Numbered from the stretch's first letter, positions 15,188 to 17,907 are shown. The stretch: 45,337 nucleotides of DNA from a virus (IMGVR_UViG_2718217885_000006); one strand, 5' to 3'. Notes: generated from the sequence alone by a model not told the origin. Program-made: numbers and translations.

Positions 15188-15195
15188 AACCACAG
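15188..15195. repeat. target-site duplication (left copy) of IS66-family element
   Basis: AACCACAG immediately outside the left inverted repeat; identical 8-mer at 17900-17907. Confidence 0.8.
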
Positions 15196-15280
15196 GTAAG
15201 CGCATCATTTAAACCGTCTTTCGCCTCCCTTTCCTGTTTCCGATACTAATGTCCATTTTCGCAGTAAAAGGACATTTAAG

Positions 15281-15931
15281 ATGAATGCACGAAAGGCGGT
15301 ATTGGCAGATAATCCGGAATTGATCCTGCGTGTGCTACAGCTGAGATTTGACGAGTCACTGTCGTACCCGCGCATTTCTGCGCAGACTGGTGTCAGCAAA
15401 ACCGCCATTTTTTCTCTGGTGAGGCGATTTCACCAGGTATTCACTGACTGGCCCCTTTCCGGTGAATATTCCTGCGGGCAACTGGCCCGGGCTCTTTTCC
15501 CGGGGCGATATCCTTCAACCCCGACCGTGACTCAGCCTGTGAAAGCAGAGAAACCCCGCCGGAACCGATTTTCACCGGAGTTTAAATGGAGACTTGTTCA
15601 GCGGACTCTTTTACCCGGTGCCTGTGTCGCACAAATAGCTCGTGAGAACGGAATCAACGATAACCTGCTCTTTAACTGGCGGCATCTCTGGCGTAACGGC
15701 GGCCTGCAGCCGCCCGGCGAACATGAAACATCGCTACTTCCCGTGACGTTAACTCCGGAGCCGGATAATAAAATCCCGGCACCAGTGCAGATACCTGAAC
15801 AGATAAATACACTGCCAGACAGTCTGTGCTGCGAGCTGGTTCTGCCGGCCGGAACTCTCAGGCTGAAAGGTGAACTGACACCGGCGTTATTACAGACACT
15901 TATCCGCGAAATGAAAGGGAGCAGCCACTGA
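15281..15931 (+). CDS. IS66-family TnpA (orf1, HTH protein)
   Basis: 216 aa first ORF of the element; one-nt overlap with the next ORF. Confidence 0.8.
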   Translation: MNARKAVLADNPELILRVLQLRFDESLSYPRISAQTGVSKTAIFSLVRRFHQVFTDWPLSGEYSCGQLARALFPGRYPSTPTVTQPVKAEKPRRNRFSPEFKWRLVQRTLLPGACVAQIARENGINDNLLFNWRHLWRNGGLQPPGEHETSLLPVTLTPEPDNKIPAPVQIPEQINTLPDSLCCELVLPAGTLRLKGELTPALLQTLIREMKGSSH

Positions 15932-16278
15932 TGATATCTCTCCCTGCCGGTTCACGTATCTGGCTGGTTGCCGGTATCACCGACATGCGAAATGGTTTTA
16001 ACGGCCTGGCATCAAAAGTTCAGAACGTCCTGAAGGATGACCCGTTCTCCGGGCATCTGTTCATCTTCCGCGGACGCCGGGGTGACCAGATAAAAGTGTT
16101 GTGGGCTGACAGCGACGGACTGTGCCTCTTCACCAAACGCCTGGAGCGGGGCCGCTTCGTCTGGCCGGTCACCCGCGATGGAAAGGTTCACCTTACTCCG
16201 GCTCAGTTGTCCATGCTTCTTGAGGGCATCAACTGGAAGCACCCGAAACGAACGGAACGCGCTGGAATCCGCATATAA
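15931..16278 (+). CDS. IS66-family TnpB (orf2)
   Basis: 115 aa; typical small second ORF of IS66 elements. Confidence 0.8.
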   Translation: MISLPAGSRIWLVAGITDMRNGFNGLASKVQNVLKDDPFSGHLFIFRGRRGDQIKVLWADSDGLCLFTKRLERGRFVWPVTRDGKVHLTPAQLSMLLEGINWKHPKRTERAGIRI

Positions 16279-16297
16279 CCCGATGTAAAGTGAGGAT

Positions 16298-17869
16298 ATG
16301 GACACCTCACTTGCTCATGAGAATGCCCGCCTGCGGGCACTGTTGCAGACACAACAGGACACCATCCGCCAGATGGCTGAATACAACCGCCTGCTCTCAC
16401 AGCGGGTGGCGGCTTATGCTTCCGAAATCAACCGGCTGAAGGCGCTGGTTGCGAAACTGCAGCGTATGCAGTTCGGTAAAAGCTCAGAAAAACTTCGTGC
16501 AAAAACCGAACGGCAGATACAGGAAGCACAGGAGCGAATCAGCGCACTTCAGGAAGAAATGGCAGAAACGCTGGGTGAGCAATATGACCCGGCACTGCCA
16601 TCCCCCCTGCGCCAGTCTTCTGCCCGTAAACCGTTACCGACCTCACTTCCCCGTGAAACCCGGGTTATCCGGCCGGAAGAGGAATGCTGCCCGGCCTGTG
16701 GTGGCGAACTCAGTTCTCTGGGATGTGATGTGTCAGAGCAACTGGAGCTTATCAGCAGCGCCTTTAAGGTTATCGAAGCACAACGTCCGAAACTGGCCTG
16801 TTGCCGGTGCGACCATATCGTGCAGGCACCAGTACCTTCAAAACCCATTGCACGCAGTTATGCCGGAGCGGGGCTTCTGGCCCATGTTGTCACCGGGAAA
16901 TATGCAGACCATCTGCCGTTATACCGCCAGTCAGAAATATACCGTCGCCAGGGCGTGGAGCTGAGCCGCGCCACGCTGGGGCGCTGGACAGGTGCCGTTG
17001 CTGAACTGCTGGAGCCGCTGTATGACGTCCTGCGCCAGTATGTGCTGATGCCCGGTAAAGTCCATGCCGATGATATCCCCGTCCCGGTCCAGGAGCCGGG
17101 CAGTGGTAAAACAAGGACTGCCCGGCTGTGGGTCTACGTCCGTGATGACCGTAACGCCGGTTCACAGATGCCTCCGGCGGTCTGGTTCGCGTACAGCCCG
17201 GACCGGAAAGGCGTCCATCCACAGAATCATCTGGCCGGTTACAGCGGTGTGCTTCAGGCCGATGCTTACGGTGGTTACCGGGTGTTATACGAATCCGGCA
17301 GAATAACGGAAGCCGCGTGTATGGCTCATGCCCGGAGAAAAATCCACGATGTGCATGCAAGAGTGCCCACCGACATCACCACGGAAGCCCTGCAGCGTAT
17401 CGGTGAACTGTATGCCATAGAGGCAGAAGTCCGGGGATGTACAGCAGAACAGCGTCTGGCGGCAAGAAAAGCCAGAGCTGCGCCACTGATGCAGTCACTG
17501 TATGACTGGATACAGACTCAGATGAAAACACTGTCGCGTCACTCGGATACGGCAAAAGCGTTCGCATACCTGCTGAAACAGTGGGATGGCCTGAACGTGT
17601 ACTGCAGTAATGGCCAGGTGGAAATCGACAACAACATCGCAGAGAACGCCTTACGGGGAGTGGCCGTAGGCCGGAAAAACTGGCTCTTCGCGGGTTCCGA
17701 CAGCGGTGGCGAACATGCGGCGGTGTTGTACTCGCTGATCGGCACATGCCGTCTGAACAATGTGGAACCAGAAAAATGGCTGCGTTACGTCATTGAGCAT
17801 ATCCAGGACTGGCCGGCAAACCGGGTACGCGATCTGTTGCCCTGGAAAGTTGATCTGACCTCTCAGTAA
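16298..17869 (+). CDS. IS66-family transposase TnpC
   Basis: 523 aa; N-terminal leucine-zipper-like region, CxxC...CxxC zinc-ribbon (CPACGG ... CCRCDH), DDE-type catalytic region. Confidence 0.85.
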
Positions 17870-17899
17870 ATATCAATACGGTTCTGGCGAGCCGCTTAC

Positions 17900-17907
17900 A
17901 ACCACAG
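17900..17907. repeat. target-site duplication (right copy) of IS66-family element
   Basis: AACCACAG immediately after the right inverted repeat. Confidence 0.8.

Follow-up and report, generated by a model that had tools for sequence, protein, structure and literature searches.

The window, by which the whole 45,337-nt stretch of viral DNA analysed here is meant, carries an insertion sequence (IS) that can be read with high confidence as an intact, recent and simple insertion of an IS679 isoform into the leader of a prophage late operon, which late transcription would probably read through, to judge by gene order. The host is a 42.6-kb lambdoid, HK97-like E. coli prophage integrated beside yecD/yecE, and the target was the 185-bp non-coding spacer that leads from an AraC-family gene to a TerB-family gene. 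The IS breaks no ORF and is oriented in the direction of phage transcription.

Structure of the element and its target-site duplication

The element, its genes and its flanks comprise the following features:

15188..15195, unstranded: left copy of the target-site duplication, 8 bp, AACCACAG; present as a single copy in empty sites
15196..17899, plus strand: complete IS679-type (IS66 family) insertion sequence, 2704 bp; 100% identical copies elsewhere share its end bases
15196..15220, plus strand: left inverted repeat (IRL), begins GTAAGCG; 17/25 match to the right inverted repeat
15281..15931, plus strand: tnpA, accessory protein with helix-turn-helix domain, 216 aa (Pfam HTH_Tnp_1, E 1.7e-16)
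15931..16278, plus strand: tnpB, IS66 Orf2-type accessory protein, 115 aa (Pfam TnpB_IS66, E 4.7e-40)
16298..17869, plus strand: tnpC, DDE transposase, 523 aa (Pfam LZ_Tnp_IS66, zf-IS66, DDE_Tnp_IS66, DDE_Tnp_IS66_C)
17875..17899, minus strand: right inverted repeat (IRR), terminates CGCTTAC; compared with IRL
17900..17907, unstranded: right copy of the target-site duplication, 8 bp, AACCACAG; read directly

The original prediction had described a complete 2704-bp element of the IS66 family with three ORFs (orf1, orf2 and a large transposase), inverted repeats in GTAAGCG and identical flanking 8-mers. This description was borne out: ORFs, domains and termini all agree, the three reading frames of 216, 115 and 523 aa lie on one strand with the matching domains, and direct reading of the sequence at 15188-15195 and 17900-17907 gave identical direct repeats.

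The three consecutive plus-strand ORFs are all intact, have the layout of the IS66 family and score above the NCBIfam equivalog cut-offs. The tnpA product reached 282 bits against IS66_access_TnpA (cut-off 150), the tnpB product 129 bits against IS66_TnpB (cut-off 50) and the tnpC product 476 bits against transpos_IS66 (cut-off 180). In TnpC the Pfam match to DDE_Tnp_IS66 spans positions 1-283 of the 284 profile positions (E 3e-104), and by its domain matches the protein is an IS66-type DDE transposase with leucine-zipper and zinc-finger N-terminal regions and a C-terminal domain. The stop codon of tnpA and the start codon of tnpB overlap in TGATG at 15929-15933, where TGA and ATG share one A, implying that the two genes would be translationally coupled; tnpC starts 20 nt past tnpB. 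At the left end of the IS, structure prediction for the RNA gave one hairpin and one more extended pairing, candidates for hiding the ribosome-binding site of tnpA when transcripts read through, but a z of only -1.6 makes them statistically unconvincing.

The element begins with GTAAGCGCATCATTTAAACCGTCTT; its right end, reverse-complemented, is GTAAGCGGCTCGCCAGAACCGTATT. These inverted repeats are imperfect, with 17 of 25 bases in agreement, the first seven of them (GTAAGCG) all the same. Both the 8-bp duplication and imperfect repeats of about 20-30 bp starting with 5'-GTAAGCG are traits of the IS66 family according to ISfinder. The 8-mer AACCACAG was counted five times in the whole window, with 1.5 occurrences expected, and its recurrence by itself is therefore weak proof of a duplication; the chance identity of two given 8-mers is about 1.5e-5 (about 1 in 65,000). 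The ends of the element are defined independently of the flanks, as copies of 2704 bp with 100% identity at other loci have the same first and last bases. The decisive evidence for the duplication is that AACCACAG adjoins these independently defined boundaries.

Empty site and route of insertion

Positions 15196-17907, comprising the element and one 8-mer, were deleted in silico and the excised site was searched with 500 bp per side. The original prediction had pointed to related prophages as the place where an empty site could be sought after such a removal, and the uninterrupted site was found in E. coli 09-00049 and OkiPb01715 (100% identity over 1000 bp), in 08-00022 (99.9% identity) and further afield: the 185-bp AraC-TerB spacer is identical or 99% identical in seven more assemblies, and 20 IMG/VR contigs carry the exact empty-site 35-mer across the junction. 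The counterpart of the window in 09-00049 is a prophage beside yecD and yecE that extends from the integrase gene to the tail-fibre genes, and it matches the window with 0 mismatches over 42.6 kb (27438 + 12999 + 2204 bp), the IS position excepted. IS-free versions of the same prophage were found as well, namely L014 (99.97% and 99.92% identity) and L054; the genome with L054 has the IS at another locus (L027). With the empty site 100% identical in several genomes and the prophage colinear with that of 09-00049, the insertion is judged to be a simple one without later rearrangement, in agreement with what had been predicted.

Two candidate explanations were rejected on the seamless flanks, which are colinear with the empty site. 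One is a composite transposon. The other is an assembly artefact, the placement of a repeat copy at the wrong position by the assembler, whose probability is negligible: these strains hold several copies of the IS, and misassembly mostly stems from repeats, but a misplaced copy would not give a perfect 8-bp target duplication together with seamless flanks.

As a measure of mobility for a member of the IS66 family, an empty site was found together with identical copies of the element at at least 10 distinct loci, and 10 of the 12 distinct insertions examined have their own 8-bp duplication. The element is probably active, as far as sequence comparison can tell. By the same kind of comparison the insertion is recent, because the IS is 100% identical at many loci and the flanking prophage has 0 mismatches to its empty-site sister.

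The filled junction of the window gave 0 matches in IMG/VR, both as an exact pattern and with a variable offset of 0-30 nt in both IS orientations. In searches with both junctions it was likewise absent from 5,426 complete E. coli genomes, the phage collection and the metagenome collection. Since this exact junction was seen nowhere else in the collections searched, it can serve as a clean strain marker. The same searches bear on the suggestion that the filled allele was gained by homologous recombination or gene conversion from an IS-bearing lambdoid prophage or phage. Lambdoid prophages recombine frequently, and the insertion lies at a mosaic boundary: phages that have the same AraC gene directly between Q and holin (L009 and L017) share the spacer to about position 15183 only, and the part held in common with TerB-module phages starts at 15133. 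Such an import is nevertheless very unlikely, as a second filled junction was found in none of the genome, phage, IMG/VR and metagenome collections named above and no imported tract shows in the flanks, which match the 09-00049 prophage at 100% identity. Moreover, the original insertion would remain a simple transposition regardless.

Sister prophages carry the IS at other positions, each copy being 100% identical and having its own 8-bp duplication. The alternative targets are given here in window coordinates:

12992..12999, same orientation: GAACAACT, identical IS in 09-00049, OkiPb01715 and CP169397.1; empty in the window
17911..17918, same orientation: CTTTCAGG, identical IS in MFDS1022581; 11 bp downstream in excised coordinates
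18030..18037, inverted: ACACGCAA, identical IS in N96; in the 5' end of the TerB gene, 122 bp downstream

The GAACAACT site lies between a helicase gene and rusA, 2.2 kb upstream of the insertion in the window. A short-range relocation from this site to the AraC-TerB spacer, with precise restoration of the donor, as could happen if the 8-bp duplicates annealed once the element had left by cut-and-paste, was considered as another route. The window and the 09-00049 prophage, without a mismatch between them, have one IS each in the same orientation, 2.2 kb apart, and an identical either/or pattern over 69 bp was seen at yhaV; the mechanism of the IS66 family is also poorly characterised (PMC12898284). 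Relocation is however the less economical account, because near-identical IS-free ancestors exist (L014 and L054), from which independent gains need no special mechanism, and because the IS of N96 and MFDS1022581 is 100% identical while its flanks are about 2% diverged, in keeping with a recent independent arrival. Other identical donor copies are available in these strains on a plasmid of about 225 kb and on the chromosome. Precise excision, moreover, is rare in E. coli. Relocation is thus regarded as improbable, and independent transposition into the spacer is preferred.

On this preferred reading, the IS would have entered the AraC-TerB spacer by ordinary transposition with a DDE transposase. 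TnpC, together with TnpA and TnpB, would have cut AACCACAG with a stagger of 8 bp, and repair of the staggered cuts would have produced the flanking 8-bp duplication.

The distribution of the insertions raises the question of target choice. The hairpin-rich 185-bp junction received three insertions, which span about 130 bp and include both orientations, and the prophage a fourth 2.2 kb upstream; at the second cluster, in yhaV, two insertions in related strains lie 69 bp apart in opposite orientations. By a rough estimate, random targeting would place two further insertions within about 130 bp with a probability of <1e-4, even given several hundred independent insertions. The two clusters suggest regional insertion hotspots, and some regional preference seems to exist. 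The target consensus over 29 distinct left flanks shows a weak bias of about NNTNAWAS with a last base that is never A, to which the target in the window conforms only partly. This bias is too weak for the consensus to be the cause of clustering. A scan of genome contigs with the left end of the IS gave contig-end fragments alone, all from one draft Escherichia genome and of use for left flanks only. Two other candidates were also discarded: the IR-like GTAAGCTCACC on the opposite strand, 11-22 bp downstream of the site, has no comparable motif at other sites that would support a role as attractant, and the 7-mer GGGATGG near the prophage and yhaV clusters occurs at about chance expectation.

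A non-random targeting of IS679-type elements, either structure- or protein-directed at the regional level or arising from conservative short-range relocation that restores the donor site precisely, is possible but doubtful. If true, it would give a first lead on the mechanism by which elements of the IS66 family choose their targets. The transposition mechanism of this family is described as poorly characterised (PMC12898284), and the literature on it gave nothing useful past 'insufficiently characterised'. The clustered independent insertions are a small, testable curiosity, and they are of interest because both target choice and mechanism of IS66 elements are so poorly characterised.

Position in the late operon

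The gene order around the insertion was read off the annotation that 09-00049 carries for the identical sequence, complemented by separate domain and terminator scans:

13220-13579: rusA (09-00049 annotation)
13588..14124, plus strand: Q-type antiterminator (Pfam DUF1133/Phage_antitermQ; 09-00049 annotation)
14219..14246, plus strand: terminator-like hairpin (14219-14238) with T-run, candidate tR' (consensus scan only)
14365..15108, plus strand: AraC-family regulator resembling YdeO/GadX (Pfam HTH_18, HTH_AraC)
15133..15160, plus strand: intrinsic-terminator-like hairpin 3' of the AraC gene, 35 bp before the insertion point (scan)
18006..18431, plus strand: TerB-family gene directly 3' of the IS (Pfam TerB; 09-00049 annotation)
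After TerB: DUF3927 (09-00049 annotation/scans)
18634-18809: STnc100-family sRNA (annotation/scans)
Between the STnc100-family sRNA and the DUF1737 gene, opposite strand: iraM (annotation)
Between iraM and holin: truncated DUF1737 gene (annotation)
19894..20100, plus strand: class II holin, first lysis gene (annotation of the identical 09-00049 sequence)

Both positional claims of the original prediction hold. The IS separates the AraC-family gene from the TerB gene, which lie at 14365-15108 and 18006-18431 on either side of it, and it is located between tR' and the lysis genes, that is, past Q and the predicted tR' hairpin and before the holin (19894-20100). The candidate tR' hairpin begins 95 nt past the Q stop codon. 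A consensus scan returned no promoter downstream of Q, and PR' and tR' are both predictions. Against the NCBIfam model YdeO the AraC-family product scored 148 bits, under the cut-off of the model. The gene is apparently an added accessory gene (moron) in the leader of the late operon, a place in the late transcription unit that fits the Q-AraC-holin order of L009 and L017. The search of the empty spacer for known RNA families gave nothing credible at E ≤ 1. The insertion site has a hairpin on either side and falls on a mosaic boundary of phage modules.

For lambda N- and Q-type antitermination it is established that the modified polymerase passes terminators and IS polarity. RNA polymerase modified by Q would thus set out from PR' and cross the IS before it reaches the genes for lysis and morphogenesis, with co-transcription of tnpABC expected at induction. 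From gene order, such late read-through of the IS is considered likely, if only moderately so, because an antiterminated polymerase disregards terminators and because the terminator scan found no strong plus-strand terminator-like site inside the IS. Given read-through, the insertion would probably have little or no effect on the phage.

An effect on cos packaging is possible, as the IS adds 2.7 kb (+6%).

The contrary view is that the insertion is polar: late transcription from PR' to the lysis genes would be weakened or blocked, or the capsid over-filled, and the crippled prophage would be kept for protection of the host from lysis. The lambda N and Q precedent and the scan of the IS, as described, both argue against such an effect, as does the state of the phage genes, with no broken phage ORF in the window and the remainder of the prophage looking intact in the 09-00049 annotation. 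Selected inactivation would also be expected in essential genes, not in an intergenic spacer. For polarity speaks that the IS occupies the sole evident route from Q/PR' to the holin and that the corresponding transcription path of sister prophages also contains this IS, be it upstream of rusA-Q, 11 bp downstream or within TerB; in addition, the build-up of IS elements in prophages is known for EHEC and C. rodentium (PMC3072379). On balance a polar insertion is unlikely, and read-through is retained as the preferred reading. The near-identical prophages with the IS at four positions, or free of it, constitute a natural experiment both on the effect that a 2.7-kb insertion in a Q-dependent late operon may have on induction and on possible insertion hotspots of IS66-family elements.

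Relation to known insertion sequences

The closest comparison was made with a plasmid copy (RIP71a), whose tnpC bears the RefSeq label 'IS66-like element IS679 family transposase'. The two elements align without gaps at 97.6% nucleotide identity, with 64 substitutions over 2704 bp, and no difference falls within 50 nt of either end. At the protein level the identity is 99.1% for TnpA, 99.1% for TnpB and 97.9% for TnpC (11 of 523 residues differ). The RefSeq name for the window's own TnpC is merely 'IS66 family transposase', without an IS679-specific name. ISfinder defines isoforms by at least 95% nucleotide identity, and the comparison used the RefSeq-annotated relative rather than the pB171 type copy.

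IS679 is said to have been first described by Han et al. in 2001 on plasmid pB171 of enteropathogenic E. coli (EPEC B171). Reportedly it has 2704 bp, imperfect 25-bp repeats and 8-bp duplications, and its transposition is reported in the same work to require TnpA, TnpB and TnpC together. The 2704 bp of the element in the window presumably equal the length of IS679. On the basis of the annotated relative and this reported length, the element is very likely an IS679 isoform under the rule of at least 95% identity. It resembles IS679 in the tnpA-tnpB-tnpC layout, in imperfect inverted repeats of about 25 bp from GTAAGCG and in the 8-bp target duplication, whereas the differences, measured against the annotated relative, amount to the 64 nucleotide substitutions and 11 TnpC residues given above. 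Nothing contradicts the identification, and the element is an already known and ordinary one, a further instance of an insertion sequence on record. Sequence related to it is present in 2,622 of the 5,426 complete E. coli genomes and in about 3,000 plasmids.

ISCro1 of Citrobacter rodentium, ISEc8, ISEc23 and IS66 have the family architecture and protein domains in common with the element, but their identity is lower than that of IS679 and they are named as separate elements; ISCro1-annotated copies match the right end of the element at about 94-98%. Elements of the ISCro1 type are concentrated on prophages, islands and plasmids (PMC3072379).

With IS629 and IS1203v in lambdoid and Stx prophages of EHEC the likeness is ecological and not one of sequence. 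These two are active IS elements that accumulate in lambdoid prophages, at positions that vary by strain with recurrent hot regions. They belong to the IS3 family, which has another transposase organisation, duplications of 3-4 bp and a copy-out-paste-in mode of transposition.

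Clustered insertions of the element in sister prophages and in yhaV

In near-identical sister prophages, the IS679-type element was found 100% identical in sequence at other positions, each with an 8-bp duplication of its own (window coordinates):

12992-12999, insertion site in 09-00049, OkiPb01715 and CP169397.1
17911-17918, insertion site in MFDS1022581
18030-18037, insertion site in N96

Three independent insertions are clustered within about 130 bp, in the spacer between the AraC-family and TerB-family genes and at the start of the TerB-family gene, one further insertion is located 2.2 kb upstream of this cluster, and two versions of the prophage (L014 and L054) do not carry the element. 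A second case of tight clustering is the chromosomal yhaV-agaR locus of related strains, where the identical element occupies two different sites towards the 3′ end of yhaV, a toxin gene. These two insertions are 69 bp apart, have opposite orientations (4916-7619 in L018 versus 4916-7619 in L021 and L025) and show the duplications CGTTATAG and TTTTTACC.

The bias in the duplicated 8-mer was weak and orientation-specific in a small sample of 29 distinct left flanks, taken from the window and loci L001-L045, with 16 of the 29 derived from one draft genome. T was present at position 3 and A at position 5 in 16/29 flanks each, A or T at position 6 in 23 and A at position 7 in 15, while A did not occur at position 8 in any of the 29.

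The insertion point and the empty spacer

The insertion point (window 15183-15195) coincides with a mosaic boundary of phage modules. Phages with the AraC-family gene directly between Q and holin (L009 and L017) share the spacer with the window only as far as approximately 15183, and in phages with the TerB module, present in about 600 genomes, the shared part starts at the terminator (15133). The predicted fold of the empty 185-bp spacer (6413-6599 in L001, a sister prophage with the element at 12992-12999) comprises the terminator and two hairpins, a small GC one and a long one (about 75 nt) directly upstream of TerB (z -3.4); a comparison of this empty spacer with Rfam gave no match.

Possibly rearranged copies of the element

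On a plasmid of about 225 kb (GCA_046698015.1; 4816-7619 in L023), a copy of the element is preceded by an additional fragment comprising its bases 1-100, and the composite has the flanking duplication TGAACAAC. This structure fits the insertion of one copy into another at approximately position 93-100 of the element, followed by recombination between both. Additionally, 09-00049 and CP169397.1 have a second lambdoid prophage (L020 and L028) in which the identical element (7001-9704 in L028) is flanked by the lysis gene Rz and by nu1, the small terminase gene; the element stops 9 bp short of the nu1 start. Its two flanks, ATTATTGT and GAATGAAC, do not form a target duplication, which suggests a deletion or recombination mediated by the element close to cos.

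Host-physiology genes and RNA families

Two host-physiology genes are carried in the late-operon leader, and three RNA families were matched in the window:

14365-15108, AraC-family regulator, nearest to YdeO/GadX with scores below the family cut-offs
18854-19189, opposite strand, anti-adapter gene iraM
18634-18809, + strand, STnc100 sRNA family, full-length match (93.7 bits, E 4e-19)
8672-8748, + strand, isrK Hfq-binding RNA (Rfam, 62.8 bits, above the gathering score)
8773-8860, + strand, C4 antisense RNA (Rfam, 80.1 bits, above the gathering score)

The assembly collection lists the exact AraC-family protein in 1,838 blocks. The STnc100 match is situated in the same leader, with the DUF3927 gene on one side and iraM, in opposite orientation, on the other, and it ends in a terminator-like hairpin (18787-18804). 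The isrK and C4 matches are adjacent to each other upstream of Rha/Ash-type regulator genes, and this pair looks like an antisense immunity module of the P1/P7 or Gifsy type.
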